DNA from: a virus
Lineage: Duplodnaviria; Caudoviricetes
DNA length: 50,968 bases
Strand: one strand, 5' to 3'
IMG/VR virus record: IMGVR_UViG_3300020711_000014
Span: 1 to 50,968 of that record
In this document: positions 1-50,676 of the stretch, in pieces
How positions within the stretch are numbered: the first letter of the stretch is position 1
Layout of the letters: each line of letters opens with the position of its first letter
Made by a program: the position numbers and the translations under genes
Notes under the pieces: generated by a model
Seen by the model: the letters and a program-made list of their open reading frames with translations, nothing else
The model's database searches: none
Told to the model about the DNA's origin: nothing

Positions 1-102
1 ATTTCCGTTAATTGGCGCTCGCTTTCGGCTTCAATTACTAAGCCGACGCGCTGCCATACTGTTATTTTTTCGTCCGTATAAATTCTAAATTTAGGCATTT
101 TC
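1..102. repeat. Near-identical copy of 50575-50676 (2 mismatches); 5' part of an alternative allele of the MPKFRIYTDEK gene
   Basis: Direct alignment; mismatches at positions 30 and 33 (IEA vs IDA). Confidence 0.95.
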
Positions 103-387
103 TAGCCCCCTTACTTTATCCATTAAAGAATTGATTTCTTCGCATAATTGCCCTAAGTTATAAATAGAGCCGAAAACAATCCCGCCGCCATATTGTTTAT
201 TATGAAAACGGCGCCCGCCCAATGGTTTAGCGCGTTTTAATGCTAGCTCATATTTTTTGCTAATTCTATCTAGCCCTGAATAATCGGCTAGATCGTCGCT
301 TGTGGTAAACGCTAAAAAGTGGCAAACATAGCGCGGATTGCCGTTAATGTCGTTATTAACGCGGGTGAAATCCTCTTGTGTAATCAT
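91..387 (-). CDS. Early hypothetical protein
   Basis: 98-aa ORF, TAACTAGAGGA RBS cassette upstream. Confidence 0.85.
   Translation of the reverse strand: MITQEDFTRVNNDINGNPRYVCHFLAFTTSDDLADYSGLDRISKKYELALKRAKPLGGRRFHNKQYGGGIVFGSIYNLGQLCEEINSLMDKVRGLENA
141..195. repeat. 55-bp overlap with contig end (50914-50968), circularisation signal
   Basis: Exact match cgcataattg...ccgccatattg; 55 is a common assembler k-mer. Confidence 0.95.
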
Positions 388-416
388 GGTTTTTTATCCT
401 CTAGTTAATTGATTGT

Positions 417-1034
417 TTAGGCGTAAGCCGTCCATTCGCTAGGCTTATAGATTGCCTTGCCTTCGATAACCGCGACGGGTTTAAACCGGCGGGCGCTTGA
501 AAATGAGTTAATCCTAAAATATGGCTCTGAATCTTCACTATATCGCTGGATTTTTTTGTTTAATATCTTGCCGATAAATTGATTGGGCGCCGGTATGCTC
601 TCGCCTTGCATAAAGCATTCGCGGCTATCCTCTGATATATCGCGAATTTGGCTAATTTTTGCCATTTGACCAGATACGCTCAAAACCTGATAAAAATCTA
701 TATTAGTTTGATCGTAACCCCATGAGCACCGGAAAACGTCCCCCGCTTTTACATCATGCGCGGCGCTTAATTGCTTGATTTTCTCGCGGCGCTCTAGCTT
801 ATCGGCGGCGGCTTTTTCTAGCTTGCTCAATTCTTCGCTAATGTAGGCGTCGCGTTTTTCGATTGTCGCAAATCTATAATGGGCGCGGGGCTTGTTAGAT
901 TTGCCACTAAAAATCAACGCGACGGGGCGCGGCTCATTAGCGCCATAAGCTGCAAATCCTAGCTCTAGGCTTTCGGCTAATAGCTTGTAGCTTTCAGGAA
1001 TAAAAAATTCTCTATCGTATGTTTTCATTTTCAA
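417..1034 (-). CDS. Early conserved hypothetical protein (GDVF..SWGYDQTNIDFYQV motif)
   Basis: 205-aa ORF with RBS cassette; motif recurrent in phage early proteins. Confidence 0.85.
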   Translation of the reverse strand: MKMKTYDREFFIPESYKLLAESLELGFAAYGANEPRPVALIFSGKSNKPRAHYRFATIEKRDAYISEELSKLEKAAADKLERREKIKQLSAAHDVKAGDVFRCSWGYDQTNIDFYQVLSVSGQMAKISQIRDISEDSRECFMQGESIPAPNQFIGKILNKKIQRYSEDSEPYFRINSFSSARRFKPVAVIEGKAIYKPSEWTAYA

Positions 1035-1058
1035 TTTTTCCTCTAGTTAATTGAATGT

Positions 1059-1205
1059 TTAACCGCAAAACCACGCGTCCGGGTTTGCCTTTAGAAATTC
1101 GCGGGCAGCCTTTACAGTGTCAAAACGCAAGTGTCTAAAATAATTGTTTTCTTCGATCGCGATCACAATCCAGCCCGCGCGATTAAATGTTAATTTTTGA
1201 GCCAT
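1059..1205 (-). CDS. Small early protein MAQKLTFNRAGW..., 48 aa
   Basis: Start reassigned to ATG at 1205, after AGGGGG RBS and the upstream stop. Confidence 0.7.
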   Translation of the reverse strand: MAQKLTFNRAGWIVIAIEENNYFRHLRFDTVKAAREFLKANPDAWFCG

Positions 1206-1207
1206 GA

Positions 1208-1312
1208 TTAAAATCCCCCTGAAATAGCATAAGCAAACATTAAACCCAAAACGGCACCCAATAGAGCCGCGCCGATCCAATCCCAAATTGTGATTTTTTT
1301 GTTTTCCATCAT
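1208..1312 (-). CDS. Small membrane peptide MMENKKITIWDWIGAALLGAVLGLMFAYAISGGF
   Basis: Hand translation; TAATG coupling to upstream ORF; one hydrophobic helix. Not in ORF track. Confidence 0.65.
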   Translation of the reverse strand: MMENKKITIWDWIGAALLGAVLGLMFAYAISGGF

Positions 1313-1428
1313 TACACCCCCAATAAAACGCGCCCAAATACAATAAATGGCACAAGCGCGATATAAATAAAAGGCGCTGCCAATGCGCCCATTAAAATTA
1401 AAAAAATCTGGCTTTCGTATTTGCTCAT
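1312..1428 (-). CDS. Small membrane peptide MSKYESQIFLILMGALAAPFIYIALVPFIVFGRVLLGV
   Basis: Hand translation; GAGGA RBS; hydrophobic. Not in ORF track. Confidence 0.65.
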   Translation of the reverse strand: MSKYESQIFLILMGALAAPFIYIALVPFIVFGRVLLGV

Positions 1429-1444
1429 TTTGTTTAATCCTCTT

Positions 1445-1690
1445 TTAATTGTTTTTAAAAAAATCTAAACATTCGTTAGAGTATTGACCGGCATCGAGCA
1501 TAGACTCAACAGTAGCCGTATAAATTGCATACCATTCGGAGGTATTAAATAGAAAACCTTGCTCCGCGCCTGTATCGTCAGCATTGTTTTCACCTGAAAA
1601 AATAACACTCTCAATTTCGTTGTATAAGTCATAGGAAATAGCACCTTTTAATGCCTCTAGCGCTTTATGCTGTTTGCCATTATTCATCAT
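1445..1690 (-). CDS. Early acidic hypothetical protein
   Basis: 81-aa ORF, AAGGGA RBS, first gene after promoter at ~1740. Confidence 0.75.
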   Translation of the reverse strand: MMNNGKQHKALEALKGAISYDLYNEIESVIFSGENNADDTGAEQGFLFNTSEWYAIYTATVESMLDAGQYSNECLDFFKNN

Positions 1691-1739
1691 TTTTTATCCC
1701 TTTATAGGTCAAATTGTCATTACTGAACTACTAGGCTCT

Positions 1740-1769
1740 AGTGTAACAGATTTTTTTGCAAAATGTCTA
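1740..1769 (-). promoter_or_regulatory. Sigma70-like early promoter (TAGACA-18-TACACT, extended -10)
   Basis: AATCTGTTACAYT core shared with sites at 39206 and 41374. Confidence 0.6.
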
Positions 1770-1804
1770 GTTTTTTTCTAGGTGTTTTCCCTAAATGTTG
1801 CTAT

Positions 1805-2122
1805 TTAGTCAAAATCGGGGCGCGGGCTAGAATTAAGCCAATTTCTATAAGCGCGATCTATACGGACAGCGCGGGCGGCGGCTTTCTCATCGTCGCGGGC
1901 TTGCGTTTGCGCGCGGCGTGTTTGCGCGGGGTCAATATATTGTCCATTCGCGATATTAAAAATTAGATCATCTAAGGCGGCGCGGGCTTGCAATTCGCTC
2001 TCATACATTCCTAGATGCTTATATTTTCCGTTAATCATCATACGGGCGCGCCATTTATTGGATTGTGCAATATAGCTTATGGCGCCCGTCCTATTCTTGC
2101 GGGTTTTTACGGTATCAGTCAT
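1805..2122 (-). CDS. AP2-domain DNA-binding protein
   Basis: WRARMMINGKYKHLGMYESELQARAA matches the AP2-type fold motif. Confidence 0.75.
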   Translation of the reverse strand: MTDTVKTRKNRTGAISYIAQSNKWRARMMINGKYKHLGMYESELQARAALDDLIFNIANGQYIDPAQTRRAQTQARDDEKAAARAVRIDRAYRNWLNSSPRPDFD

Positions 2123-2160
2123 TTTTAGCCTTTTTAGGTGTTTATCAAAGGTTAAATTTT

Positions 2161-2651
2161 ATGGCAATAATGACAATATGTCTAGTTTATAAAACGGTAA
2201 TTTATAGGGGCGATAGATGATGACTAATAGTTTTTTGCAAATTGTCATTTTTAAGGGGTTTTTAAAGTTTTTTGGGTTATGTTTTGGGTTATGTTTTTGG
2301 GGTTTTGACCTATTGGCGGGGGCTTATAGCTATTAGCTTATAGCGGGTTATTGGTCAAATTGTCATTTTTTATTTATTTATTAGAATTGGAAATATAAAA
2401 AATAGGGTTTTTACAATGTTATCGGCTAGCGGTTTAAATTGCCATGGCAATTTAGCCTATTTAGCCCATGCCATTTTGACCATGCTATCAGGCGCAAGTT
2501 TTGGGCTATTGGCTATCAGATAAGAGCTAATAGCTAGGGGCTTTTTTAATCTAGGTGAATTTTGATCGCGCCCCGCTCCGGTTTTAAATTTCAAGCCGAT
2601 AGCCCCTAGCTTATAGCTTGTAGCTAATAGCTAGCATATGACAATTTGACC
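2161..2651. repeat. Dispersed GGTCAAATTGTCAT repeats; candidate origin/iterons
   Basis: Exact at 1707-1720, 2353-2366, inverted 2638-2651; degenerate at 2170, 2237, 2444. Confidence 0.6.
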
Positions 2652-2721
2652 TATTGTTGTTTGACATAACACCGGTTATACGCAACAAGCTAGCAGCTTT
2701 TAGCTAAAGGCTTATAGCTAG
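2320..2721. repeat. Four arrays of 7-bp-phased nRGCYnn units
   Basis: 2320-2347, 2503-2544, 2593-2634, 2687-2721, e.g. tagctta tagcttg tagctaa tagctag. Confidence 0.85.
2659..2686 (-). other. dif-like XerC/XerD recombination site
   Basis: Minus strand GTTGCGTATAA-CCGGTG-TTATGTCAAAC; 11-6-11 layout, each arm 9/11 identical to E. coli dif. Confidence 0.75.
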
Positions 2722-2850
2722 GGGTTTGCAGGGCGATAACGCCCGCTAGCCCTTATTCTATATGCGCCCGCTTTTTTGCCATATAAAATCGAAAAAGGGG
2801 GTCATTAAAATAGGTGGGTACGATGATGGGGTTTTTTATTCTATAAAATA

Positions 2851-3080
2851 TGCAAAAAAGTGTTTTGCAAAGTCCAAAAAATTTTTGTAATTTTTAAAAC
2901 TAAGTTAGCAGTCACTAACATAGCTAATTTCCCGATCGGGAACTTTCTTGAAATTTCATGCACTTTTTCAACATATATTCCCGATCGGTAAATTTATGTT
3001 GAAAAACAGCCCCTAGCCCAAAACTGTCATATATAAGGTAAACCCTAGCATCTTGCATATTTAAGGGTTTATGCTAATAT
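2851..3080. promoter_or_regulatory. Cluster of operator-like palindromes and putative late promoter upstream of terS
   Basis: GTTAG-N6-CTAAC 2904-2919; TTCCCGATCGGGAA 2929 and variant 2978; TTGCAT-16-TAATAT 3053-3080. Confidence 0.55.
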
Positions 3081-3109
3081 CGAACCATCGTCAATCTTAG
3101 GAGGTAATC

Positions 3110-3523
3110 ATGGAGCGTTTTACACCAGATCCCCTATTTTATTCAATTGACCATAAGACCGATAAAATCGAAGCTACCGAAGAAGAGATTGCCAACATCT
3201 ATGATGCTGCCTATCGCGGTCTTGCCGGTGACGCACTAGCTATCGCTGCTGGCTTTTTGCCCGTAGACTTCAATCGTCTTTGCCAATTTGACCCAAAAGC
3301 TGCCGAAGCAGTGATTTATGGTCGTGCTAAAAATCATGCAGATGTAAGCGGATCCTTAATGAGAAACGCTCTCAATGGCGACACTAAAGCAGCAACGACA
3401 GTGCTCACTCACTTACATGGCTGGAAACCTGCCAAGCCAGAAGCTGATAGCTCCAATGAATTACGCATCGTCATTGAGAATACGCTGCCAGACCCCACCC
3501 CCGAACAGAAAGCTATTAGCTAA
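3110..3523 (+). CDS. terS: Terminase small subunit (putative)
   Basis: AGGAGG RBS; helical; directly upstream of and coupled to terL. Confidence 0.7.
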   Translation: MERFTPDPLFYSIDHKTDKIEATEEEIANIYDAAYRGLAGDALAIAAGFLPVDFNRLCQFDPKAAEAVIYGRAKNHADVSGSLMRNALNGDTKAATTVLTHLHGWKPAKPEADSSNELRIVIENTLPDPTPEQKAIS

Positions 3524-4809
3524 TGGCTAATACCCGACGGGTCACACTTCCAGTTTTACATTCAGGGCAACATGCCCTGTTTTTACAGCAACAACGCTTA
3601 AACGCAGTACGGTGCGGACGACGCTGGGGAAAGACACGCTTTCTGGAATGGCTTGCAGCTAGGGGCGCGGGCAACGGGCAATCCGTTGGAATCTTCGCGC
3701 CCGAGCACAAACAGCTTGCCGAACCATGGGATCACTTGCGCGACATGTTAGACCCCATCATTAAAAGTGCCAATCGCAACGACGGTACTATCAAATTGAT
3801 GAGTGGCGGCAAGATTGACTTCTGGACACTGAACGACAATGAGCTAGCAGGTCGCGGGCGCGAGTACAACTTGGTGCTCATTGATGAGGCGGGATTTACC
3901 AAGTCGCCGCAGATGAAAGACGAGATTTGGTTCAAGTCCATCAAACCAACGATGTTGACAACTCGCGGCGTATCGTGGGTGTTCTCTACCCCGAATGGCT
4001 TGGATCCGGACAACTTTTTCTACGCAGCCTGTCAAGAACCAGACCTTGGGTTTAGCTCGTTTCATGCGCCGACTAGTACAAACCCTTACGTTCCACTGGA
4101 CGAGCTTGAGCGCGAACGCGAACGCAACCACCCAATGGTATTCCAGCAAGAGTTTTTGGCGGAATTCGTGGATTGGTCAAACATCGCGCTGTTTGGTGCT
4201 GACAAGCTACTAGTTGAGGGTTTACCCGTACAATATCCAACCAATTGCGACGCGGTGTACGCCGTACTCGATACCGCGGTCAAAGGCGGCAAACAACATG
4301 ACGGCACGGCAGTGGTGTTCTTTGCGCTCAACGAGTTTGGCATTCCGCTGACCATCCTCGATTGGGATGTCGTTCAGATTGATGGCGGCTTGCTCGAGCA
4401 TTGGATCCCCAGTGTGTTCTCGCGGCTAGAAGAGTTAGCTAGGGGCTGTGGGGCAAGGTATGGTAGCGCGGGCGTGTTCGCCGAGGACACCGCAACTGGT
4501 TCAATCTTGTTACAACAAGCTGCCAACCGCGGTTGGGCGATGCGCCCGATTGATAGCAAGTTGGTGCAAGCGGGCAAGGATGAAAGAGCCGTCAGTGTGT
4601 CAGGTTACTACCATCAAGAAAAGCTCAAGATTAGCGAGTATGCGTTCAACAAAACGATAGCATTTAAAGGCTCAACGCGAAATCACTTGCTGACACAATT
4701 AGCTTCCTTTAGACTAGGGGATCCAGATGCCCACAAGAGAAGTGACGATCTGTTAGACGCAACCGTCTATGGAATTGCGCTCGGATTAGGTAACAAACTC
4801 GGATTCTAG
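3523..4809 (+). CDS. terL: Terminase large subunit
   Basis: Walker A GRRWGKT, GRGR, Walker B LVLIDEA, STP motif, C-terminal DDLLDA nuclease motif. Confidence 0.95.
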   Translation: MANTRRVTLPVLHSGQHALFLQQQRLNAVRCGRRWGKTRFLEWLAARGAGNGQSVGIFAPEHKQLAEPWDHLRDMLDPIIKSANRNDGTIKLMSGGKIDFWTLNDNELAGRGREYNLVLIDEAGFTKSPQMKDEIWFKSIKPTMLTTRGVSWVFSTPNGLDPDNFFYAACQEPDLGFSSFHAPTSTNPYVPLDELERERERNHPMVFQQEFLAEFVDWSNIALFGADKLLVEGLPVQYPTNCDAVYAVLDTAVKGGKQHDGTAVVFFALNEFGIPLTILDWDVVQIDGGLLEHWIPSVFSRLEELARGCGARYGSAGVFAEDTATGSILLQQAANRGWAMRPIDSKLVQAGKDERAVSVSGYYHQEKLKISEYAFNKTIAFKGSTRNHLLTQLASFRLGDPDAHKRSDDLLDATVYGIALGLGNKLGF

Positions 4810-4844
4810 TGGTATGATGGGCAATATATTTTTGGGAATAATCT

Positions 4845-6260
4845 ATGTCTGATATAAGCATCTCCAATACATCCCTGCCTTCCCCACTAATGTCGTTTCT
4901 TCAGACGGATTCAATTGAGCCGGGAACTCCCGCGGGCTACGAAACTTGTAAAGCTATTTTCGAGTATCACCCATTAGCCCCTAAGATTATTGAAAAACCC
5001 ATCGTTTTAGCGTTGTCCAAACCACGCATTATTACAATGGATTGCCATCCAAAAGAGATGTTGATTAAAGCATTTCAGGATGAGTGGGATAGTTTAGATG
5101 CTACCAACATTATTCGCGACGTGACGTTTCTCAAACGCGTGTACGGCGTATCCGCCGTCATCTATGGCGCCGAAGGTATTCCAACAGATAAAGAAATTGA
5201 CCCTTGGCAATTGCCGTATTTAAATTTGTACTTTAATAAACTTGACCCGTTAAACCTTGCTGGCTCAACCGTCACCAACCAAAACCCAAACGCGCCAGAC
5301 TTTCAAAAGCCGCTAGAGTACATAACGGCTGCGGGTCAGCCATACCATCCAAGTCGTAGCAAAATTGTGTATAACAATGCGCCGATTTATTTAAGTTTCC
5401 AGCCATCCGGTTTTGGTTTCACAGGTCGTTCTGTATTCCAGCGCGCCCTGTATCCTTTGAAATCATTCGTTCAGTCTATGGTCACTGACGATTTGGTCAC
5501 TTTCAAAGCGGGTCTGCTGGTCATTAAACAAAAGCAATCTGGCTCAATTGTTAATCGCTTGATGCAAACAGCCGCTGGCATTAAACGTAGCTACTTACAA
5601 CAAGGTGTTACGGGTAACGTATTGTCAATTGATATTGACGAGGACATCGAGTCTATCGACTTGAACAATACCGACACCGCGATGACTACCGCGCGTGACA
5701 ACATCATCGCCAACATTGCCGCAGCTACTGATGTACCAGCTATTCTCTTAAAAGATGAAGCCTTAGCTAACAGCTTTGCAGAAGGTAGCCAAGATGCGAT
5801 TGCAATTGCTCAATACGTCACTAGTTTGCGTAACGATATGAGAACGCTGTTTGACTTCTTTGACAAAATCGTGATGCACCGCGCATGGAACAAAGAGTTT
5901 TTTGACGCCGTTCAAGCAAAATACCCAGACATGTACGCTGGTAAAACATACGAACAAGCATTTTACGAGTGGAAAGATGCGTTTATACCAATCTGGGATT
6001 CCATGATTGAAGAAACTCCAAGCGAATTGGTCAAGACTGAAGAAGTCAAGCTCAAAGGTATGACCGAACTCTTGCGTACTATTTTGCCTGTAGTGAACCC
6101 CGAAAACCGCGCCCGCGCGATCCAATGGGCGCAAGATAATCTTTCCGAAATGAATGATATGTTCACTTCATCCATGCAACTCGATATTGAAGAGATCATG
6201 GAATATGAACCGCCTGAGCCACTAACAGCCCCAACTGAGCCGCCACACGCTAAGGACTAA
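4845..6260 (+). CDS. Portal protein (DUF1073-type)
   Basis: 471 aa after terL; HPSR, FTGRSV and IAAATDVPAILL motifs. Confidence 0.85.
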   Translation: MSDISISNTSLPSPLMSFLQTDSIEPGTPAGYETCKAIFEYHPLAPKIIEKPIVLALSKPRIITMDCHPKEMLIKAFQDEWDSLDATNIIRDVTFLKRVYGVSAVIYGAEGIPTDKEIDPWQLPYLNLYFNKLDPLNLAGSTVTNQNPNAPDFQKPLEYITAAGQPYHPSRSKIVYNNAPIYLSFQPSGFGFTGRSVFQRALYPLKSFVQSMVTDDLVTFKAGLLVIKQKQSGSIVNRLMQTAAGIKRSYLQQGVTGNVLSIDIDEDIESIDLNNTDTAMTTARDNIIANIAAATDVPAILLKDEALANSFAEGSQDAIAIAQYVTSLRNDMRTLFDFFDKIVMHRAWNKEFFDAVQAKYPDMYAGKTYEQAFYEWKDAFIPIWDSMIEETPSELVKTEEVKLKGMTELLRTILPVVNPENRARAIQWAQDNLSEMNDMFTSSMQLDIEEIMEYEPPEPLTAPTEPPHAKD

Positions 6261-6262
6261 TC

Positions 6263-7063
6263 GTGACTTTCTACGAAGTCCTTACGCAAGCGGTCAATTA
6301 CTACATCACATATGGCTTTGAAAACGAAGCTAGGCTCAAATATTGGATGGAAGAGCTTAGAAATGCGGCTGTAAAATCATTAATTACGCCTGAAAAGCTG
6401 CAAAAAGAATTAGAACGCTCTTTGAAGGGCGCTTTTGACCGATTAGTGACCAAAGGCGGGCTTGTAAACAAAGATGTTAGCCGCTTTACCGTAGCTAAAC
6501 TAACCCCCAAAATGCGCGCCGAATTAGATCGTCGCATCGTAGCAAGCGCCAACTTAATCAAGTTTAATCGTGAAGAGTCTATTAGCAATACATTGCGACG
6601 ATTTGCTGGTTGGGCTACTTCGATTCCGCCCGGCGGAAATAAAGATGTCAAACGTCAAGAAGAGAAAAAGCACATTAAAAAAGAGCTTGGGATGTTGCCG
6701 TTTAAAGAACGACGCGTCATTATTGACCAAACTCACAAGCTAATAGCCAATATCAACGAGATCGTAGCTGTTGATAGCGGTGCTATTGCAGCGCAATGGC
6801 ACAGTAATTGGCGTCAAGCAAACTACGATTATCGTGAAGATCACCGCGAATTAGATGAAAAAATATTTTTAATACGCGGTAGTTGGGCTGTAAAAGATGG
6901 TTATGTAAAATCAAAAAACGGATATACTAATGATGTAGTCGCGCCCGGCGAAGCGGTTTATTGCCGGTGCAGGTATAAGTATTTATACCGGGTGAGTCAA
7001 CTGCCCGACGAAATGATTACCCAAAAAGGTAAAGAAGCGTTACAATCCAAGAAAATTTACTAG
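6263..7063 (+). CDS. Head morphogenesis protein (SPP1 gp7/Mu F-like)
   Basis: After portal; R..H..LD and PGEAVYCRC motifs. Confidence 0.8.
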   Translation: MTFYEVLTQAVNYYITYGFENEARLKYWMEELRNAAVKSLITPEKLQKELERSLKGAFDRLVTKGGLVNKDVSRFTVAKLTPKMRAELDRRIVASANLIKFNREESISNTLRRFAGWATSIPPGGNKDVKRQEEKKHIKKELGMLPFKERRVIIDQTHKLIANINEIVAVDSGAIAAQWHSNWRQANYDYREDHRELDEKIFLIRGSWAVKDGYVKSKNGYTNDVVAPGEAVYCRCRYKYLYRVSQLPDEMITQKGKEALQSKKIY

Positions 7064-7074
7064 GGTTTTAACCT

Positions 7075-8589
7075 ATGCCATTTCAGTCGGAAAACCAACG
7101 AAAAGCGATGTACGCTGCTGCCGCGGGCAAATCTAATATTGGTATTCCAAAATCAGTAGGTGAAAAATTCATTAAACATAAAGATGACGGCGAAGCCGAA
7201 AATCTTGAATGGTTAAATGAACTTCTATTAAAAGAAATGGAAGTAAAAGCATTAAAAGAGGATTCTTTGGTATCTGCGCCCGTTCTTTTGGCGCCTACAG
7301 AGTTTGAAACTGATAGCAATATCGTGGTTCGCAAAGGCGAATTAAGCCACGAATTACGAAAATTGCAAATTAAAGATATTGGCGAAAAACTATATCAAGT
7401 TGCCCAGCACATTAAAGATCTTAAAAAAGACGATGATTGCGACGAAGAAGCTGTCCCGCGTTTTGGTGTAGAAGATAAAAACGATGCAGACCCATGCTGG
7501 GAAGGCTACAAACAATACGGCATGAAAGAAAAAGACGGTAAAAGCGTACCAAATTGCGTACCAGATGCCGAAAATGAACCAATTGAACAAAATGCTCAAT
7601 TAGTTCCAGAACCACCAAAAGAAGTAAAACCCGAAGATAACATGGGCGGCGCTCAAGGTAGAGCTGCTGGCATTATGTTTATCACCCCAAACGAAGAAGT
7701 TTTGATGATTCGTAGAGGCATGGGTGGTGGTGACTATCCCGGCACTTGGTGTATTCCGGGCGGGCATCAAAAAGGCGATGAAACCCTTGAAGAATGCGCC
7801 CGCCGTGAATGTAAAGAAGAAACTGGTATTGACTATAAAGGCAAACTAGAAGTTCTTTATGACGACGGACAATTCTGCTATTACGTTGCTCACAACTTCC
7901 CTAAAGAAGAAGTAAAACTAAATTACGAATCTTCTGGATCTGATTGGTGCAGCCCAACAGTTCCGCCAATGCCATTACATCCGGGTTTAGAAAATGCGTT
8001 CAAAATTGCAATGGCTAAAACCGAAACCGATGTAGCTAAATTGATCGCTGAGGGTTTATTAGCTAGCCCACAGATGTATGCCAATATTGCTTTGTTAGCA
8101 ATTCGCATCACCGGTACAGGTTTAGCGTTCCGTTCAAGTATCGGTGAACACGTTTGGCGTGATCCATCTTTGTATTTAAACGATGAGTTTTTACAGCGTT
8201 GTAACGGCTTGATGGTAATCATGGATCACCCCGAAACTCAAGTATTAACAACCGAAGAATTTAAAAATCGTGCAGTTGGTTCTGTTTTGCTACCTTACAT
8301 TAAAGGCGATGAAGTCTGGGGTATTGCAAAGATCTATGACCAAGATGCAATTTCCGAAATTTTGGAAGGCGAAGTATCGACTTCCCCAGCAGTTGTTTTT
8401 GACCAAACTGCTGGTAACATTACACTTACAACCGAGAATGGCGAGCCACTCTTGATTGAGGGTGTGCCATTCCTACTGGATCACATAGCAATCGTTACGA
8501 AAGCTAGGGGTTCAAAGGGAGTATGGGACAAAGGCGGCGACGCCGCTGGAGTTTTATTAACTAACAATGAGGTGTCTGAAAATGACTGA
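7075..8589 (+). CDS. Multidomain head protein: Nudix hydrolase plus DUF2213-like (putative prohead protease) domain
   Basis: Nudix box GHQKGDETLEECARRECKEETG; C-terminal IMDHP...STSP...DHIAIV; position before scaffold. Confidence 0.8.
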   Translation: MPFQSENQRKAMYAAAAGKSNIGIPKSVGEKFIKHKDDGEAENLEWLNELLLKEMEVKALKEDSLVSAPVLLAPTEFETDSNIVVRKGELSHELRKLQIKDIGEKLYQVAQHIKDLKKDDDCDEEAVPRFGVEDKNDADPCWEGYKQYGMKEKDGKSVPNCVPDAENEPIEQNAQLVPEPPKEVKPEDNMGGAQGRAAGIMFITPNEEVLMIRRGMGGGDYPGTWCIPGGHQKGDETLEECARRECKEETGIDYKGKLEVLYDDGQFCYYVAHNFPKEEVKLNYESSGSDWCSPTVPPMPLHPGLENAFKIAMAKTETDVAKLIAEGLLASPQMYANIALLAIRITGTGLAFRSSIGEHVWRDPSLYLNDEFLQRCNGLMVIMDHPETQVLTTEEFKNRAVGSVLLPYIKGDEVWGIAKIYDQDAISEILEGEVSTSPAVVFDQTAGNITLTTENGEPLLIEGVPFLLDHIAIVTKARGSKGVWDKGGDAAGVLLTNNEVSEND

Positions 8590-9421
8590 AAATAAGATTG
8601 AGCCAAAGGCAGATGCCCAAGGCGATAAATTAGATGCCATTATGTCTTTATTGGGAAAAACAATGTCCCGTTTAGATGAAATGGAAAAAAACCTTCCTGC
8701 GCCACCCCTAGTAACTGCGGCTGATAAAAAAGCTAAAGCGAAAAAAGATGACGACATGGAAGCATGTGACGATGATGAAGAAGAAGAAGCTAAGAAAGAT
8801 GACGATGAGTCTGAAGCTAAAGCTAAGAAATTCATGATGCGTAAGGCTAAGAAGGACGCAGAGGGATCTGATCCTAAAGAGCACGGCAAAGCTGGCGAGA
8901 TCAAGCCAGATGACGAAGGCGAAGTTGAACATCCGGGTCATATGGAGTTCAAAAAAGACGACGACGAAGAAGATGACCGTAAAGATGATGACGAAGAAGC
9001 AGCTAAGAAAGATGACGAAGAAGCCGCATACGCTGATTGTCAAGCTAAAGCTGATTCTGTTTACTCAGCTTTTGGTAAATCTGCATCACGTCCATTACAA
9101 GGCGAAAGCTTAATGGCTTATCGCAAACGTATGCTCCGTGGTTTGCAAGCTCATAGCGACGAAATGAAAAACGTAAACATCAACAAGATTGCTGACGAAA
9201 CAATGTTGCAAATCGTTGAAAAACGTGTTTATGCTGACGCTCTTGCTGCTTCCCGTGGAACTGGCGCAATCGCAAAAGGTCAATTGATCGCGTTGCACAA
9301 GAAAGACCAAGCTGGTCGTACCATCACTGAATACCGTGGTGATATGGAAGCATGGTTAGGTGACTTCAAGCTCCCAACTCATCGGGTCGTGAAGTTTAAT
9401 ACTGAAAATGTTAAGCGATAA
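8582..9421 (+). CDS. Capsid scaffolding protein (putative)
   Basis: Highly charged KKDDDEE repeats; GAGG RBS before ATG 8582. Confidence 0.7.
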   Translation: MTENKIEPKADAQGDKLDAIMSLLGKTMSRLDEMEKNLPAPPLVTAADKKAKAKKDDDMEACDDDEEEEAKKDDDESEAKAKKFMMRKAKKDAEGSDPKEHGKAGEIKPDDEGEVEHPGHMEFKKDDDEEDDRKDDDEEAAKKDDEEAAYADCQAKADSVYSAFGKSASRPLQGESLMAYRKRMLRGLQAHSDEMKNVNINKIADETMLQIVEKRVYADALAASRGTGAIAKGQLIALHKKDQAGRTITEYRGDMEAWLGDFKLPTHRVVKFNTENVKR

Positions 9422-9431
9422 GGAATAAGCC

Positions 9432-10091
9432 ATGACCGCACAAATTTCTCTACAACCAATGGTAACAACCAACGCTGCTGGCTTATTTAATGTCAACTCC
9501 GCTGGTTTTACACAAGGTGATGCACTCGACGATCCAGCAGTTAAATTCTGGTTGGCTGGTGGTGTTCTTTCAACTTCTGCTACTTCTCCTTTATGGGGCG
9601 GAGTTCCAATTGCTGAATTGATCCCAACTGCACAATCTGGTGTTTACTCTGGTGACACACAACCCGGTACTGACACATTAGGTTCTACCATTATCCAAGC
9701 ATCTACTGTAGCTGCTCCGACTGGTATTTCCGTGTTTAACCAAGCTTTCCAAGGTATCACAACCCCACAAAGCACAGCACCGTTGTACTCTCCCGGCATG
9801 TCTGTAAACTTCTACCGTTTCGGTTCAGGCGCTCGTATTCCATTGCCTTGCGATGCTTCTATCGTAGCTTTGGCTGGCAGCTCTATCACTGAAACTGTGT
9901 ATTGGGATACAACAAACCTCCGTTTAACAACAACAGCAACGAGCAACTTTGCAGTACCTTGCAAAATCTTGCGTATTAGCACTTCTGGTAACAAAATTGT
10001 TAACTACAATTCTGGTACTGGCAATGCTAACTGGTCTAACACCATCGTTGGTGGCTCATCTGCTGCTCCTGTAGCAGTTGTTCTAATCTAA
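9432..10091 (+). CDS. Head decoration/cement protein (putative)
   Basis: Between scaffold and MCP; strong codon bias. Confidence 0.6.
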   Translation: MTAQISLQPMVTTNAAGLFNVNSAGFTQGDALDDPAVKFWLAGGVLSTSATSPLWGGVPIAELIPTAQSGVYSGDTQPGTDTLGSTIIQASTVAAPTGISVFNQAFQGITTPQSTAPLYSPGMSVNFYRFGSGARIPLPCDASIVALAGSSITETVYWDTTNLRLTTTATSNFAVPCKILRISTSGNKIVNYNSGTGNANWSNTIVGGSSAAPVAVVLI

Positions 10092-10105
10092 GAAAGGAAT
10101 AGATC

Positions 10106-11131
10106 ATGTCAGGTTTTGCACCTTCATATGTAACAGTAAATCCACACTTCATGATGCCTGAGCTGATTATGCAGTACAGCTTGGCTTCTGGTGCGTTTAC
10201 AACTCTGGCAACAGAGAACCCAATGCCACGCTTAGGCGAGGCTGACCTTTATGTTTACGCTAAAAAGGTTCAGTTGACGACTCAAGTATCTGCTAACCAA
10301 TCGACTGCTAACCAGTTGCCAAGCGCATCTGTTATCCCTTCGATGATTAGTACTGCTACTTATCGTCTGCAAACCCGCGCTCAGTACGACAACTTCGATG
10401 AAGCTGCTACTGGTGCTTGGGGCTATGCACTCCCAGAGGCTCTCCGTCTTGCTGCTCGTCAAGGTATCGCCCAGCAGTTGCGTAACGCTCTTCTCTATGG
10501 CTACAACCCAGCCAACGGCGAAGGCTTGCTCAATACTTCTGGCGCTACTCGCATCAACTTAGGTGCAGACAGCAACGGTAACGTAGGCTACAGCACATGG
10601 GATTCTGGTCAATTAGCTCAGTTCTTGCTAAATGCAATCGGTAACTTAAAAACTACTACATTGCAAATTGGTCAACCTTTGCGCTTGGTATTCCTTGCTC
10701 CACAGCGTTTCATTCAACAGATCAGCTACGGCGGCATCGTGTCATTGACACAATTCCAACGTATCGGCGCTGGTGTTGAAACTGCTGCTGGCTTGGTTGA
10801 AACCGTAGCTCAGTGGGCAGGTGGTGACGATGTATCTTTTGCTGCTGATGACACACTCATCGGTCAAGGTTACGGCGGTACTGACGCAATCATCTTGATT
10901 GCTCCAGAACTCAAGATTCCTAAAGCAAACTCACGCATCAACACCAACGTATTTGCTGAATTGACACCAAATACAACTGCAACATCTTTGATGCTCTGCG
11001 ACGTGGCTGCACCTACAGAGATTCCTACTCCATTGCCAGACGGTGGTATTACTACCCTCTACACAATGCGTAGCACCTCTGGTTGGGGTATCCGTCCAGA
11101 AGGCATGACGATTATTTCGGCTGCCTATTAA
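10106..11131 (+). CDS. Major capsid protein
   Basis: 341 aa; YGYNPANGEGLLN motif; strong codon bias; terminator follows. Confidence 0.85.
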   Translation: MSGFAPSYVTVNPHFMMPELIMQYSLASGAFTTLATENPMPRLGEADLYVYAKKVQLTTQVSANQSTANQLPSASVIPSMISTATYRLQTRAQYDNFDEAATGAWGYALPEALRLAARQGIAQQLRNALLYGYNPANGEGLLNTSGATRINLGADSNGNVGYSTWDSGQLAQFLLNAIGNLKTTTLQIGQPLRLVFLAPQRFIQQISYGGIVSLTQFQRIGAGVETAAGLVETVAQWAGGDDVSFAADDTLIGQGYGGTDAIILIAPELKIPKANSRINTNVFAELTPNTTATSLMLCDVAAPTEIPTPLPDGGITTLYTMRSTSGWGIRPEGMTIISAAY

Positions 11132-11151
11132 TAAAATCTCGTGAGGATTTT

Positions 11152-11175
11152 AACCACCCTTCGGGGTGGTTTTTT
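11152..11175 (+). terminator. Rho-independent terminator
   Basis: AACCACCC-TTCG-GGGTGGTT followed by T tract. Confidence 0.9.
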
Positions 11176-11190
11176 GTTAATATATGAGAA

Positions 11191-11268
11191 CCCAAGTGAT
11201 GCTGGGAAACATTCTTTATGGGGAGCCGGGGGTTCAAAAGACCCCGCATCATCGGCTTCCCACCCATA
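11191..11268 (+). ncRNA. Structured leader RNA candidate with possible pseudoknot
   Basis: Hairpin CCCA(AGTGATGC)TGGG; stem GGGAGCCG/CGGCTTCC containing a hairpin and a GCATCAT bulge. Confidence 0.45.
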
Positions 11269-11281
11269 CTAGGGGAAAATA

Positions 11282-11788
11282 ATGGATTTATTTATCGCAA
11301 ATTGCAGTAAACAGGACTTTTTGTTCACATATATGTTGCCTGAGAACATTAGACCTTTTTCACACAAAATCCGTGCTGGAGCACAAATTAAGCTAGTTCA
11401 AGATCAACTTCAAGTCGATGCGATCATTAAACAGCATGAGTTGTATGGAATGATGGAAGTCACTAAAGTTAAAAAAGGCTTTGGTGGACTATGCTATCGT
11501 TTTAATAAACCAATTAATGTTGAAGCAATTGAAGCCGGTATTAGTCAATCTGACCAAGAAAATATTGACCGCGCTCAAGAAGCCCGTAGTATCACTGCCG
11601 CAGCGCAAGATCAAATCATTTCAATGAAAGCACAAGAAATGGGAATCAAACAAAAGGGCGGTATTGAGTTTGAAATTACGGAAGATAAAAAGAACGCAGC
11701 CGATCAATCCGAAAAGTTTGACCAAAAAATTGAAGTGATTCATGAAGGTGAAGCACCAAAAGGACGTGGTAGACCAAGAAAAGGATAA
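11282..11788 (+). CDS. Virion-module hypothetical protein
   Basis: 168 aa; AGGGG RBS; C-terminal GRGRPRK. Confidence 0.8.
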   Translation: MDLFIANCSKQDFLFTYMLPENIRPFSHKIRAGAQIKLVQDQLQVDAIIKQHELYGMMEVTKVKKGFGGLCYRFNKPINVEAIEAGISQSDQENIDRAQEARSITAAAQDQIISMKAQEMGIKQKGGIEFEITEDKKNAADQSEKFDQKIEVIHEGEAPKGRGRPRKG

Positions 11789-11793
11789 TAAAT

Positions 11794-11814
11794 AGCCCCC
11801 TTGCGGGGCTTTTT
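11794..11814 (+). terminator. Rho-independent terminator
   Basis: AGCCCC-loop-GGGGCT followed by TTTT. Confidence 0.75.
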
Positions 11815-11850
11815 CATTTAGAATATAGAAAATCTTTCTAGGATGGTTCT

Positions 11851-12309
11851 ATGGCTGATCCAATTGTTTCGCCACCCTCGTTAAACGGCTTTATTGCGTG
11901 GGCGCAAGCCGTTATGGGTATTCCCACTCAGGCTATGTCACCAACCGACCCCGGCTGGAATTACGCTTATGTATTGGCTTTGGATATTGTTCCAACCGAT
12001 TTTGCGGCAACTGTACCTGATATTTATACGCTGACAGTTTATAACTGGGCAGGAAGTCAGCTTTTACAGTTTCAACAAGATTACGCTGGACAAAGCTATT
12101 TCACTACATTACGCGCTCAATTTGGCATTAACAACTTTATTGCCGGTGTAGTCACATCTGCGGGCGACGTAAGCACGAATGAAGCGCTTGCCGTAGGTCA
12201 TGGCTTGCGTGATCTTAGCTTATTGGATTTGCAACGCATTAAAGACCCATACGGGCGCGTAGCGCTGTCATACATGCAACAACTTGGCACACTCTGGGGC
12301 TTAACCTAA
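11851..12309 (+). CDS. Head-tail adaptor (DUF4054-like, putative)
   Basis: Synteny; C-terminal DPYGR..L motif. Confidence 0.6.
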   Translation: MADPIVSPPSLNGFIAWAQAVMGIPTQAMSPTDPGWNYAYVLALDIVPTDFAATVPDIYTLTVYNWAGSQLLQFQQDYAGQSYFTTLRAQFGINNFIAGVVTSAGDVSTNEALAVGHGLRDLSLLDLQRIKDPYGRVALSYMQQLGTLWGLT

Positions 12310-12779
12310 TGAAGCTACATTTAGGCGTTGTAGAAGTACCTGAAATTGAAGGTACTACCTATACCGTAGGACAAGACCTTGAAAAAAGATACGGTCTATT
12401 TTCAATGTTTTATAACGCCCATCAACAAGAGATTGCCGATTTAATCGCTAAAGACGCCGCAATAGGTTTAGAAATGGCAGAAAAAAACATGCCAATTTCT
12501 GTAAAATCTGTTTTTGCAGTTAGCGGGGAAACAATTACCGATAAAATGCACAACTTTTTGACTAGTCAAGAAATCGAACGCGTGGCGGGAAAATACGGCG
12601 AAGAAGGTATTCCAACCAAAGCCGCATTAGAAGGCATTAACACTCGCACTGCAACCGGAAAAGCTCCTAAAAGAATACGAAAAGGTCAAAAATTTAAAAA
12701 GGTGGTTACAGGTGTTCGCCGCCCATCTTTTATTGATACCGGTATTTTTGAGCGATCTTTAAAAGGATGGATTGAATAA
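12309..12779 (+). CDS. Neck/tail completion protein (putative)
   Basis: RPSFIDTG motif; synteny. Confidence 0.55.
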   Translation: MKLHLGVVEVPEIEGTTYTVGQDLEKRYGLFSMFYNAHQQEIADLIAKDAAIGLEMAEKNMPISVKSVFAVSGETITDKMHNFLTSQEIERVAGKYGEEGIPTKAALEGINTRTATGKAPKRIRKGQKFKKVVTGVRRPSFIDTGIFERSLKGWIE

Positions 12780-13780
12780 TGGCATCCGCAGTCGAAGCAG
12801 CAGGAGCAAAACCGCAACTTGGCGCTGGATTAGCCCAAGGTGTTGAAACTATATCCAACTACGAAGAGGTTACATTTACGCTTTATGTAAAGCTAGTGTT
12901 GCCTTTAGACGGCTATGTTTTTTGGGTAAATGCCAGTCTTTTGACTGACTCTGCTCTTTATAACGCATCGCAATATAACAAACTGCTTTATAACAACTAC
13001 CCAACTGGAATACCCCCAAAGCAAATTACGGCTAAAGGTTCATTCCATGTGCATCAAGATATGCACCAGTTGGCGGATAGAACAACCGTTTACAACCATA
13101 TTATTTTTACTTCTTTGCAACCTATACAAGATTTCAATTTAGTAAACCCACAGTTTTTGTATATTGCAAACTATCAGGGCTATAAATACGCTTTTAGCCG
13201 TAGGGAAAACTACTACAAACAAGCTGATTTATACCACTATCGTGGCGACGCGCTCTATTCCATTATGGATACGCAGGTCATTGATTCCATGACTGGATTC
13301 GATACTACCAGCGTAATCGTATCCAATAGCCTTCCAATTTGGCTTGGTTTAAATCAGTTTTTCCCTATGTACCCATCGTATTTGGTGGAACAAAACTTGC
13401 CTCCAGTGTACGCGTCGGTAGATATTGATCCGCGACAAACCACTGCACTGCAAGATTTCCCGCTATTAGACCCAGAATCTAACCCATATCAGTTAGTAAA
13501 AGATACGGTAAAAATTGAGCTTTTTGGGGTTAGAAACCACGATGCCCTTAATTTTGTTAACTACATACTGGATTACAGTCGAAATACAGACAATATTGGC
13601 TTAATGAATATGCCTGTAATGCAAGACGAAAAAGTTACCCAACCTGAATTAACTATTTTGGCTCAAAAGAAAACGATTACTTTTGAAGTCAGCTATTTTC
13701 AGACTACAGTAAATAATGTTGCAAGACAATTAATTGAACATGCGTTTATTACCCTTACACCGGGTACTATTCCAAGTTAA
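12779..13780 (+). CDS. Neck/head-closure and tail-terminator-like protein (putative)
   Basis: 333 aa, coupled ORF just before the sheath region. Confidence 0.5.
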   Translation: MASAVEAAGAKPQLGAGLAQGVETISNYEEVTFTLYVKLVLPLDGYVFWVNASLLTDSALYNASQYNKLLYNNYPTGIPPKQITAKGSFHVHQDMHQLADRTTVYNHIIFTSLQPIQDFNLVNPQFLYIANYQGYKYAFSRRENYYKQADLYHYRGDALYSIMDTQVIDSMTGFDTTSVIVSNSLPIWLGLNQFFPMYPSYLVEQNLPPVYASVDIDPRQTTALQDFPLLDPESNPYQLVKDTVKIELFGVRNHDALNFVNYILDYSRNTDNIGLMNMPVMQDEKVTQPELTILAQKKTITFEVSYFQTTVNNVARQLIEHAFITLTPGTIPS

Positions 13781-13833
13781 AATTAAGTAGTAAGATGTTA
13801 ATATCTCAACCTAGTGTATAAAAGGAGTTACAA

Positions 13834-14148
13834 ATGGCAATCGTTACCAACCCAACCGTTCAAAATGGTGCTTTACTGACAGCCCAAGGTCAAAAAACAT
13901 TTTTCAATATCACTGCTGATACTTTAGTAAAAGCGACTGCTGGTCGTGTTGCTAAGGTTAGCGTTTTAGTTGCTGGCTCTGTTGCTGGCTCTGTAAACGA
14001 CGCTGCAACTATTGGCGGTGCTGCTACTGCAAACGAAATTGCAGTAATCCCAAACACTGTTGGCGTTTATAACATTGACTTCCCTGTTTCTAATGGCATC
14101 GTCATTAAAGCTGGTACAGGCAATACTATCGCTGTTAGCTACATCTAA
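13834..14148 (+). CDS. Small structural/decoration protein
   Basis: AAGGAG RBS; beta-rich A/T/V composition. Confidence 0.65.
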   Translation: MAIVTNPTVQNGALLTAQGQKTFFNITADTLVKATAGRVAKVSVLVAGSVAGSVNDAATIGGAATANEIAVIPNTVGVYNIDFPVSNGIVIKAGTGNTIAVSYI

Positions 14149-14161
14149 TTAGGGGGCAACT

Positions 14162-15472
14162 ATGCCAAATATTGTAAACGTAGTTGTCACCCAACAGGTG
14201 GCAAGTGCGCCAAGTCAGCTACAACAAACTGGCGCACTTGTTTCCCAAGGGGGAACAACTTTAGCTGCTGGAACAAGTCAACTATTGACCCAGCTTTCAG
14301 ATTTAACTTCTATTCTTAGAAGCTCTAGCGCTATTGCTTCAGCATCTTGGACAGGCGGAACTGTAACAGTAACTACTACCGCAGCTCACGGCGTTCCTTC
14401 TGGCGATACTATTCAAGGTATTATTGCTGGCGTTACCGTTAGCGGTAGCACTAATAACGGATATAACGGCACTTTCGCTATTACATCTACTGGTACAAAT
14501 ACTTTAACTTACGCTGTTGCAAGCAACCCCGGCACTGCCGTAACAACTTCAGCTTTCTTTACTATTGAAGATGTTTCTGAATTAGTAGCGATGGCTACTA
14601 CATTCTTTGCTCAAGGTTCTACTGTTTCAGTTTATGTATTAGAGTTGGGTGTTGATACTGTAGTTAACGGCGTAACTGCTTTAGAAGCGTATATAGCCAA
14701 TCCAACAATTAGATTTTACAGCTATTTGTTGCCTAAATCGTGGGATGTTACAGCAGCTCAAACAATGGCTAAGTTGTATACAAGTACAACTTCTCAATTG
14801 TATTTCTATGTAACTTCTACTTTAGCAACATACTCTGGTTGGGCAGGTATTAAATCAGCTTTTGTAACATTACAAAGCCCTGCTGCTCCATCAACAGAGT
14901 TTACTGCCGCTGCTATTTTCTGGGCTTCTTTGGCTTATAACCCAAGTGCAACTAATTTAGCGCATCCGTTTGAATACACTTATGTTTATTCTGTAACACC
15001 TTACGCTTTAACCAATTCTGTCCAAACAACTTTATTGGCAGCAGGTGTAAACTGGGTTGGTACAGGCGCACAAGGCGGTATTTCAAATACGCTAATTGAA
15101 GGCGGTACGTTTATGGATCTCAATCCATTTAACTACTGGTATTGCGTAGATTGGTTATCAATTAATGTGGCTCAGTCTTTATCTGCCGCAATTATTAACG
15201 GTTCTAATCTGCCTACAAATCCTTTGTACTATAATCAAGCTGGTATCAATACCTTGCAAAAGGTAGCTCAAGCAACAGTTAATAATGGTATTTCGTTTGG
15301 ATTGATCCTATCTCCAGCAAGCGTCGCTGCTGTTCCATTTACTACTTATGTAGCGCAGCACCCCGGAGATTACAGCACTGGTACTTACAACGGTTTGAGC
15401 CTAACATTTGTTCCATTGCGTGGATTTAGCTCCATTACTATTTACTTAACTGCATCTAACATTCCAGTTTAA
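14162..15472 (+). CDS. Tail sheath protein (DUF3383-like) with inserted beta domain
   Basis: YWYCVDWL and PLYYNQAGI motifs; precedes tube gene. Confidence 0.8.
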   Translation: MPNIVNVVVTQQVASAPSQLQQTGALVSQGGTTLAAGTSQLLTQLSDLTSILRSSSAIASASWTGGTVTVTTTAAHGVPSGDTIQGIIAGVTVSGSTNNGYNGTFAITSTGTNTLTYAVASNPGTAVTTSAFFTIEDVSELVAMATTFFAQGSTVSVYVLELGVDTVVNGVTALEAYIANPTIRFYSYLLPKSWDVTAAQTMAKLYTSTTSQLYFYVTSTLATYSGWAGIKSAFVTLQSPAAPSTEFTAAAIFWASLAYNPSATNLAHPFEYTYVYSVTPYALTNSVQTTLLAAGVNWVGTGAQGGISNTLIEGGTFMDLNPFNYWYCVDWLSINVAQSLSAAIINGSNLPTNPLYYNQAGINTLQKVAQATVNNGISFGLILSPASVAAVPFTTYVAQHPGDYSTGTYNGLSLTFVPLRGFSSITIYLTASNIPV

Positions 15473-15484
15473 GGAGAATAAATA

Positions 15485-15928
15485 ATGTTAAATCCACAAA
15501 TTCAACAAGGCACGTTAAATAGGCTACTAGCCAGCGTTGTTTACGCTACTTTTCCGCAACTAAACGTAACGGCTGGCTACTTATCTAAAGAAGCAATTAG
15601 CTTGGCTTTTGATGGTGATACTTCTCAACTTATTCCGACTTTAACGGGCGCTGTAACCAGCCCAGAGCCGTATATTTTTGGGACTGTCACTATGCATTTG
15701 CTAAGAACTCAAGCTCTTGGTGAAGCATATAGCAGTCAAATTCGTACTAACACTACATTAGGTTCTGTTACGGTTTACCCTGATACACAAGTATTACAGC
15801 CGTTCCAGTTAAATAACTGTGTTTTAATGAGTATTCAAGAAACAACTTTTGATGGTAATCAAGCGGGTTTAGTAGTACGCTTGCGTGGTGTATACAGTAT
15901 TAATAGCGCCTTATTTGCGGCAAGTTAA
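15485..15928 (+). CDS. Tail tube protein
   Basis: 147 aa directly after sheath; AAGGAG RBS. Confidence 0.75.
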   Translation: MLNPQIQQGTLNRLLASVVYATFPQLNVTAGYLSKEAISLAFDGDTSQLIPTLTGAVTSPEPYIFGTVTMHLLRTQALGEAYSSQIRTNTTLGSVTVYPDTQVLQPFQLNNCVLMSIQETTFDGNQAGLVVRLRGVYSINSALFAAS

Positions 15929-15996
15929 CGTAAACTAGGCTAAAGCAATCTCCCCGGATTAGTAACTTTTTCCGGGGATTTTTATAAAAGAAAACG

Positions 15997-16694: not shown

Positions 16695-16702
16695 GGCACA
16701 TC

Positions 16703-18280: not shown

Positions 18281-18288
18281 AGGTTTTT

Positions 18289-18939: not shown

Positions 18940-18947
18940 ACGATATA

Positions 18948-50672: not shown

Positions 50673-50676
50673 TTTC

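Follow-up and report, generated by a model that had tools for sequence, protein, structure and literature searches.

The non-coding region and the phage that carries it

The window, i.e. the whole stretch of DNA that was analysed, spans 50,968 bp and makes up a complete viral contig (CheckV estimate 100%). In it, a non-coding region of 1 kb (2123–3109) separates early-type genes that read leftward from the terminase and structural genes that read rightward, and contains a 28-bp site on the minus strand (2659–2686), GTTGCGTATAA-CCGGTG-TTATGTCAAAC, 424 bp before the presumed small terminase gene (3110–3523, plus strand; assigned by position alone, without a family match); the large terminase gene terL, of T4 type by PHROG and Pfam, follows at 3523–4809 (plus strand). 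The XerC-type arm GTTGCGTATAA (2676–2686, minus strand) and the XerD-type arm TTATGTCAAAC (2659–2669, minus strand) each agree in their inner 10 nt with the respective arm of the Polynucleobacter dif described below. Between them lies the central region CCGGTG (2670–2675, minus strand), the predicted place of cleavage and exchange, which is GC-rich, differs from the host sequence TCATTA and is hypervariable among related phages. Past the XerD arm, profiles of 20 phage and 50 host contexts revealed an extension (2653–2658, minus strand) that reads AACAAT in the window and AAGAAT in most relatives. With two arms of about 11 bp, partial dyad symmetry and a 6-bp centre, the architecture is that of a Xer core.

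The site had been described in an earlier note as dif-like on the basis of 9 of 11 identical positions in each arm relative to E. coli dif. This count was reproduced on the minus strand at 2659–2686 (2 + 2 mismatches), and no other place in the window, on either strand, has 4 or fewer mismatches to the E. coli arms (the next best two have 6). When the window was simulated 400 times with a first-order Markov model, 5 runs (1.25%) contained at least one hit as good, and 0.008 per window are expected analytically; at a chance of about 1% per window, hits of this kind are expected when many windows are scanned, and the match to E. coli dif alone is therefore weak. At three of the four mismatches the phage has precisely the base specific to Polynucleobacter. 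The comparison with E. coli served to recognize a XerC/XerD-type core, but the proper yardstick is the dif of the probable host, Polynucleobacter, with agreement at 20/20 arm positions. A reading of the site as a sigma-70 promoter (TTGACA lies within the XerD arm) was rejected; there is no −10 element at the proper distance, and a promoter scan was silent there.

Arrays of a TAGCTTA-like heptamer with a period of 7 flank the site on the left (2594–2634) and, on its XerC side, on the right (2688–2724), and further heptamer arrays are found at 2321–2347 and 2511–2537. A conserved iteron, TGACAATTTGACC (2639–2651, plus strand), adjoins the XerD side and has related copies at 2302–2317, 2350–2366 (inverted) and 2468–2482, so that the bracketing by heptamer arrays and an iteron given in the earlier note, where they are possible accessory sequences, is confirmed as to the features themselves; the iteron also occurs in some relatives without a dif-like site. 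Alignment of 19 relatives showed a conserved non-coding block, AGGTGAATTTTGATCGCGCCCCGCTC...TTTAAATTTCAAGCC (2553–2597, plus strand), and alignment of relatives also showed, on the XerC side, a conserved stem-loop GCAGGGCGATAACGCCCGC with a block TTTTTTGCCATATAAAATCGAAAAAGGGGGTCATTA (2728–2807, plus strand). The latter are candidate accessory, promoter or pac sequences; they occur also in relatives without the site and are hence not specific to it. Heptamer arrays flank the site in all aligned relatives at the same places (L006–L070), and the heptamer itself differs between close relatives (TAGCTTA, GCTAACA, GCTAGTT, CTTAATT, GCTGAAT, GCTGGTT), as does the copy number, a turnover that suggests concerted evolution or a co-evolving binding protein. 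Iterons and heptamer arrays probably bind phage proteins. Contig ends located 500–1000 bp upstream of terL were considered as physical termini and rejected, as they start in heptamer arrays or in unrelated sequence and look like assembly breaks. Cultured phages contained no blastn match to the non-coding region, and the 5 kb upstream in relatives, where the early genes are mosaic, contained no ORF that co-occurs with the site as a cofactor gene would.

According to PHROG and Pfam scans the phage is contractile-tailed, with genes for portal, major capsid protein, sheath, baseplate, fibre and endolysin in the window, and it encodes a replication module of SNF2-type helicase, PD-(D/E)XK exonuclease, family A DNA polymerase (PolA) and primase. 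The gene content is apparently of the virulent type (own PolA, primase, helicase and exonuclease; no repressor recognized). Among 66 ORFs of at least 70 aa in the window, none matched a PHROG family of the integration/excision class; Pfam gave no recombinase, partition or XafT/DUF3653 match for 29 small or unknown ORFs, and a six-frame search of the window for tyrosine recombinase (PF00589) and resolvase (PF00239) domains returned nothing at E ≤ 1. The absence of a recognizable integrase, as stated in the earlier note, therefore holds as far as these searches extend. A scan of the window for tRNA genes, sought as a clue to the host, found none.

The two ends of the contig repeat each other imperfectly (1–112 and 50575–50689; 128–195 and 50901–50968; both about 95.6%), the 3' end carrying an extra stretch of about 211 nt relative to the 5' end; the overlap seems to derive from a strain variant. 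In a relative with 98% TerL identity the sequence is continuous across the junction of the window's ends. The overlap and this read-through indicate a circular genetic map of about 50.6 kb, which together with the T4-type terminase makes a terminally redundant, permuted genome plausible and fits headful packaging. Two further features were recorded. An ORF on the minus strand (91–387), located in the leftward early-type gene block that adjoins the non-coding region, matches Pfam Phage_TreK, the terminal-repeat-encoded protein of Staphylococcus phage K (E 5.6e-18). After the capsid gene there is an intrinsic terminator (11148–11183; CCACCC-TTCG-GGGTGG and then a T run) with matches of 25–35 nt (89–100%) to about ten Polynucleobacter genomes at scattered places, and it is probably generic. 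By capsid and TerL, the cultured relatives (50–55% identity) are the Yersinia vB_YenM phages, Pantoea PdC23, Klebsiella Chronis/Roth, Rac-SA53 and Actinobacillus pPE4; they were discarded as a guide to the site, being lambdoid, with the lysis cassette upstream of terS and only the structural module in common, and are thus uninformative.

The dif of Polynucleobacter and the probable host

The arms were searched as TTGCGTATAA-N6-TTATGTCAAA in one genome per species of 185,579 species (596-Gb collection). Exact arms were found at 72 loci, one match each, and 50 of these have the spacer TCATTA. The titles of the 50 genomes name mostly Polynucleobacter isolates or MAGs, unclassified Burkholderiales, Burkholderiaceae, and beta-proteobacterial or Pseudomonadota MAGs, with one Rhizobium MAG; most of the remaining loci have typical dif spacers, e.g. 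TGTATA, TTTATA and TGTGTA. The arms of the phage site are those of the Polynucleobacter site at every one of the 20 positions.

In 5/5 Polynucleobacter isolate genomes the site is unique. On the complete chromosome G001 (1,893,413 bp) it is located at 588,154 and dnaA at 1,552,855, a separation of 50.95% of the circle; to the left of the site 10/10 20-kb bins have a positive GC skew and to the right 10/10 have a negative one, and the KOPS motif GGGNAGGG is distributed 8:0 (plus:minus) on the left and 0:9 on the right. In the phage, KOPS polarity is uninformative (one GGGNAGGG against 2.7 expected). When 151 Polynucleobacter genomes were searched with the 26-mer, 124 matched within 3 mismatches, 123 of them once and one twice (on different contigs). 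The spacer in the genus is almost always TCATTA, with TAATTA in a few genomes, those with TTATGTTAAA; the genus sequence can be written as (T/C/A)TGCGTATAA-TCATTA-TTATGTCAAA(T/C)AAGA (genomes G001–G152), and it lies near the midpoint of many single-contig assemblies. Its position opposite dnaA, the switch of GC skew and KOPS, and its uniqueness per genome identify TTGCGTATAA-TCATTA-TTATGTCAAA as the chromosomal dif of Polynucleobacter. XerD scored above the curated cut-off (TIGR02225) in 3/3 Polynucleobacter genomes, and each of the three has a XerC-like paralogue at 266–319 bits, below the TIGR02224 cut-off of 335. This definition of the Polynucleobacter dif is a by-product of the analysis; the supplement of PMC3025954 may list a predicted version.

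Polynucleobacter is the probable host of the window phage, an assignment reached partly through the dif arms themselves; for the related phages, only the dif arms point to a host. A second connection was obtained when window positions 1–20000 were compared at the DNA level with 201 Polynucleobacter genomes. Matches were obtained in 27 genomes, and the majority of the hits fell on 2925–3006 (75–86% identity over 65–80 nt, best E 9e-12), which belongs to an insertion of about 110 bp (2920–3031) present in this genome only and containing the palindromes TTCCCGATCGGGAA (2929–2942) and TTCCCGATCGGTAA (2978–2991). The host element, the operator region of a hipB-hipA toxin–antitoxin module, consists of palindromes (ATTTCC(C/T)GATCGGGAAAT), two or three in number and spaced by about 48 bp, and an HTH_3 gene and then a HipA gene lie immediately downstream of it; the phage insertion resembles it and has two palindromes, TTCCCGATCGG(G/T)AA, 49 bp apart and about 120–180 bp upstream of the small terminase gene. 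None of 65 relatives examined has this hipBA-like insertion, not even those at 98%. The pattern fits a recent pick-up of Polynucleobacter DNA, and gives the host assignment independent support. The insertion might place the late genes under control of the host's HipB, or soak up HipB/HipA.

Conserved arms and a hypervariable centre in related phages

Relatives were taken from a terL-based scan of viral contigs, which yielded 73 loci, 59 with at least 900 nt upstream and 14 shorter; a site was called at a maximum of 4 mismatches over the 20 inner arm positions and a spacer of 5–9 bp. It was present in 41/59 of the longer loci, always on the same strand and 686–793 bp before terL, and in 2/14 of the shorter ones, i.e. 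in 43 loci in total. Both arms are exact in 26 of the 43, and the others are off by one to four positions (e.g. TTATGTAAAA, TTGCGGATAA, TTGCAGATAA); L050 is a doubtful hit (4 mismatches, 9-bp spacer). Conserved arms around a variable spacer are what the earlier note had proposed to look for in relatives, and the 43 loci gave this result. By the same criteria 18/59 loci have no site (one of them, L045, has variant arms), so some lineages can do without it; in L041 and L042 nothing separates the iteron from the conserved block downstream, and the site is simply absent. On a TerL tree of 63 rows the site recurs in several clades that lie well apart, with identity to the window as low as 65%, a distribution that demands at least 4 gains or losses.

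Across 20 distinct phage contexts the ten inner positions of the XerC arm are invariant or nearly so, and the XerC/XerD difference between the two arms is maintained, with no drift to symmetry. Past the XerD arm the phages read (C/T)AAGAAT (AACAAT in the window) and the hosts (T/C)AAGA(A/T)A. The arms were kept while the heptamers, the neighbouring non-coding DNA and the mosaic early genes upstream turned over. Exact-arm sites are also nearly exclusive to these phages, since a search of 2.9 million viral contigs returned 29, of which 27 come from this phage family (26 already found via terL and one more, L222).

Several sites outside this pattern were noted. Two viral contigs without kinship to this phage, L226 and L247 (5.7 and 5.9 kb), also carry these arms without mismatch; the centre of L226 is that of the host, TCATTA, and a serine recombinase gene adjoins it, and L247 has the centre TAGCTA and no PHROG hits. 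Both may be dif-associated islands or Xer-exploiting elements of Polynucleobacter. In L056 there is a second, degenerate XerD-arm-like stretch, CTTGTTTGACATAA, nearer terS (about positions 25–60 of that locus). L045 has other arms at the equivalent place, about 809 bp upstream of terL (GATTCACATAA-CGCGCG-TTATGTTAAAG); these variant arms (ATTCACATAA/TTATGTTAAA) match in 26 genomes of mixed taxa, including six Mucilaginibacter with the common spacer TTAACA, and look like real dif arms, though they point to no one host. A related phage contig binned in a Mucilaginibacter MAG (L150) is without a site of the L045 type.

The centres of the 43 loci are CGTACG (11), CCGGTA (9), CCGCTA (7), CCGGTG (4, plus the window), CTGGTG (3), GGTAGA (2), GCGGTA (1), CTGGCG (1) and the 7-bp TTAGCGA (4). 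Thirty-eight loci have a centre of 6 bp, four have one of 7 bp, and the doubtful locus has one of 9 bp; the 7-bp centre occurs in four relatives among L053–L057, where the site is 790–793 bp upstream of terL. The host centre TCATTA occurs in 0/43 loci. The first centre base is C in 90% of distinct phage contexts vs T in the host, and 17 loci have only the final two centre bases, TA, in common with TCATTA. Distinct centres average 66% GC in a surrounding region of 36% GC.

The rate of change was determined in three independent close pairs (L022–L024, L035–L038, L028–L032). The centre differs at 9/18 positions, compared with 30/360 in the 60-nt flanks (Fisher p = 1.3e-5) and 32/553 four-fold degenerate terL sites (p = 6e-7), and changes about 16 times faster than synonymous sites. 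Different centres were seen on the TerL tree even among phages with identical TerL proteins. Such faster-than-neutral change points to catalysis or partner specificity at that spot.

Possible uses of the site and known Xer systems

The identity of the arms with host dif, their kept asymmetry, their long-term conservation and their near-exclusivity to one phage family make it very likely that this is a functional XerC/XerD site that mimics the host dif. What it serves is less certain, and recombination of phage with phage is proposed here at slightly below an even chance. Host XerC and XerD would bind the phage site as they do dif, and XerCD would then recombine two copies of the phage's own site. 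These copies might lie in the terminal redundancy of a headful-packaged genome and be used for cyclization after injection, as with Cre/lox in P1, or they might lie in replicating dimers or catenanes and be used for monomerization or unlinking, as with psi and cer for plasmids. Strand exchange requires matching central regions; with a foreign, GC-rich centre the phage would therefore be protected against crossing over with the dif of the chromosome, and this proposed insulation would explain the lack of these phages as prophages. The psi-like architecture, with good arms and a 6-bp centre unlike dif, would favour recombination between phage copies, and rapid turnover of the centre could sort co-infecting relatives into private compatibility groups or arise as a side effect of cleavage at that place. 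Among the uses listed in the earlier note, multimer resolution (or cyclization) fits best; integration at dif is disfavoured, and titration of Xer keeps the standing of a rival.

This proposal has weak points. To act on a dif core alone, XerCD normally depends on septal FtsK, unless accessory proteins (as for psi and cer) or an activator of the XafT kind take its place; PHROG and Pfam gave no DUF3653/XafT-like protein in the phage, and there is no co-occurring ORF upstream. A phage that packages concatemers is without obvious need of multimer resolution, 18/59 relatives manage without the site, and the GC-rich centre might hinder exchange beyond altering its specificity. A more far-reaching reading, possible but unlikely, is that a virulent tailed family turned host dimer resolution into a lox-like system without a recombinase of its own, with the centre as a private bar code under diversifying selection; the phage's recombination partners, among co-infecting genomes or parasitic Xer-exploiting satellites, would then be decided by the centre. 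Carried further, this reading would make the whole 1-kb non-coding region a set of host cis-element mimics (dif, hipBA operators) that capture host DNA-binding proteins in the course of infection.

Also unlikely is a use of the site without recombination, in which XerC and XerD are bound tightly and the GC-rich centre blocks exchange. Topoisomerase IV is linked to XerCD-dif, and the bound complex might recruit, for instance, this enzyme for decatenation. It might also stop FtsK, which halts at XerCD-dif according to the available part of PMC2800217, or the many phage copies could titrate XerCD and so leave chromosome dimers unresolved and division stalled. Perfect arms around a GC-rich centre unlike any natural dif centre among the exact-arm genome hits would suit such a site, as would the lack of a recognized Xer activator or accessory system, and the hipBA operator mimic in the same non-coding region of the window may mean that this region collects binding sites for host proteins. 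However, a pure binding site gives no reason for a centre that changes about 16 times faster than synonymous sites or for the kept centre length of 6 bp (7 bp in 4 loci), titration of Xer would hit only cells with chromosome dimers, and the hipBA-like insertion is absent from 65/65 relatives, which argues against a conserved 'sponge'.

Integration at dif, in the manner of CTXphi, VGJphi, TLCphi and the dif-type DJR phages, would make this a temperate phage without integrase that enters the host dif by Xer, and is very improbable. The lack of an integrase or serine recombinase, a dif-like site with both arms intact, and the 17 loci with centres ending in TA as in host TCATTA would be compatible with an attP of this type, and known IMEXs tolerate partial non-homology of the centre (available text of PMC5357621). 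Against this, a terL scan of the 185,579 species genomes, which reaches close relatives only, found no prophage relatives and nothing in an isolate, so that the search for related prophages at dif suggested in the earlier note had a negative outcome; its hits were three MAG contigs (26, 2 and 1.5 kb), inconsistently titled Mucilaginibacter, Methylococcaceae and Nitrospiraceae. The 72 exact-arm genomes contain a single site each and no hybrid dif/attP sites, and the sole phage-like centre among them is on a 1.7-kb MAG contig (L142). The centre has no consistent likeness to that of the host; it equals the host's in 0/43 loci, whereas homology of the centre to dif, at least on the side of the catalysing recombinase, is what characterizes IMEXs. 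In known IMEX attP sites one side of the centre stays homologous and the XerD arm is usually degenerate (PMC3025954 and PMC5357621, in the parts available), a pattern that is reversed in the phage, and the virulent-type gene content, with no repressor recognized, likewise speaks against integration.

That the element is not a Xer site at all but a palindrome-like operator, origin or pac element of a phage protein, with a dif likeness due to chance or to a neutral host relic, is hardly credible: its place in a repeat-rich control region between divergent gene blocks, adjoining iterons and heptamer arrays, and the roughly 1%-per-window frequency of the E. coli dif match taken alone would allow it, but a 20/20 arm match is expected by estimate about once by chance in 596 Gb and 72 were found, concentrated in one genus, the arms stay different in the XerC/XerD manner, and their retention across clades of 65% TerL identity amid turnover rules out a neutral relic.

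Taken as a functional site, the element suggests that a freshwater phage family borrows XerC and XerD of its host for its own DNA and not for integration. It would then be a novel manner in which lytic phages exploit a recombinase universal among hosts and would offer a natural series of compatible and incompatible XerCD central regions. As the phage arms copy the host dif, they would also provide a sequence-only handle for host prediction, which here leads to Polynucleobacter, an abundant freshwater genus for which the open-access literature yielded no paper describing an isolated phage. Exploitation of Xer by plasmids, filamentous or tailless phages and genomic islands is already known; a dif-mimicking family of tailed virulent phages would be new. 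A tailed, integrase-less, apparently virulent phage with a host dif mimic was not found in the main texts of open-access papers and preprints, and the Xer-exploiting viruses in the available portions of that literature are filamentous or double-jelly-roll phages, all of them integrating.

The chromosomal dif of Polynucleobacter and the phage site have in common the 20/20 arm positions and the AAGA past the XerD arm, and differ in the centre. Among plasmid systems, the XerC side of psi and cer is extended by accessory sequences of about 180 bp, which bind PepA with ArgR or ArcA; the phage has conserved blocks and a heptamer array on that side, the blocks being found in site-less relatives as well. 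Like the phage, psi (pSC101) and cer (ColE1) belong to replicons without a recombinase and combine XerC and XerD arms with a centre of 6–8 bp unlike dif (architecture as in the available text of PMC5357621), and they recombine among copies of the element, not with the chromosome, as is proposed for the phage. Unlike them, the bearer here is a tailed phage of about 50.6 kb whose gene set is of the virulent type, the arms reproduce those of host dif exactly, and the centre is GC-rich and hypervariable among close relatives. The IMEXs (CTXphi, VGJphi, TLCphi, the gonococcal island and dif-type DJR phages) resemble the phage in having no integrase and a dif-like site for host XerCD (PMC5357621 and PMC12715192, in the parts available). 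These elements insert themselves at dif, with homology retained on one side of the centre at least and a XerD arm that is often degenerate (accessible portions of PMC3025954, PMC5357621 and PMC12715192), and the bearers described there so far are filamentous or tailless phages and genomic islands. In contrast, the present phage has perfect arms and a foreign centre, and no integrated copies were found. The proposed use also resembles that of Cre/loxP in P1, a tailed headful phage that recombines two short asymmetric sites to cyclize its terminally redundant DNA and to resolve dimers, and in which identity of the loxP spacer sets compatibility; P1, however, encodes its own recombinase, whereas here XerCD of the host would serve.
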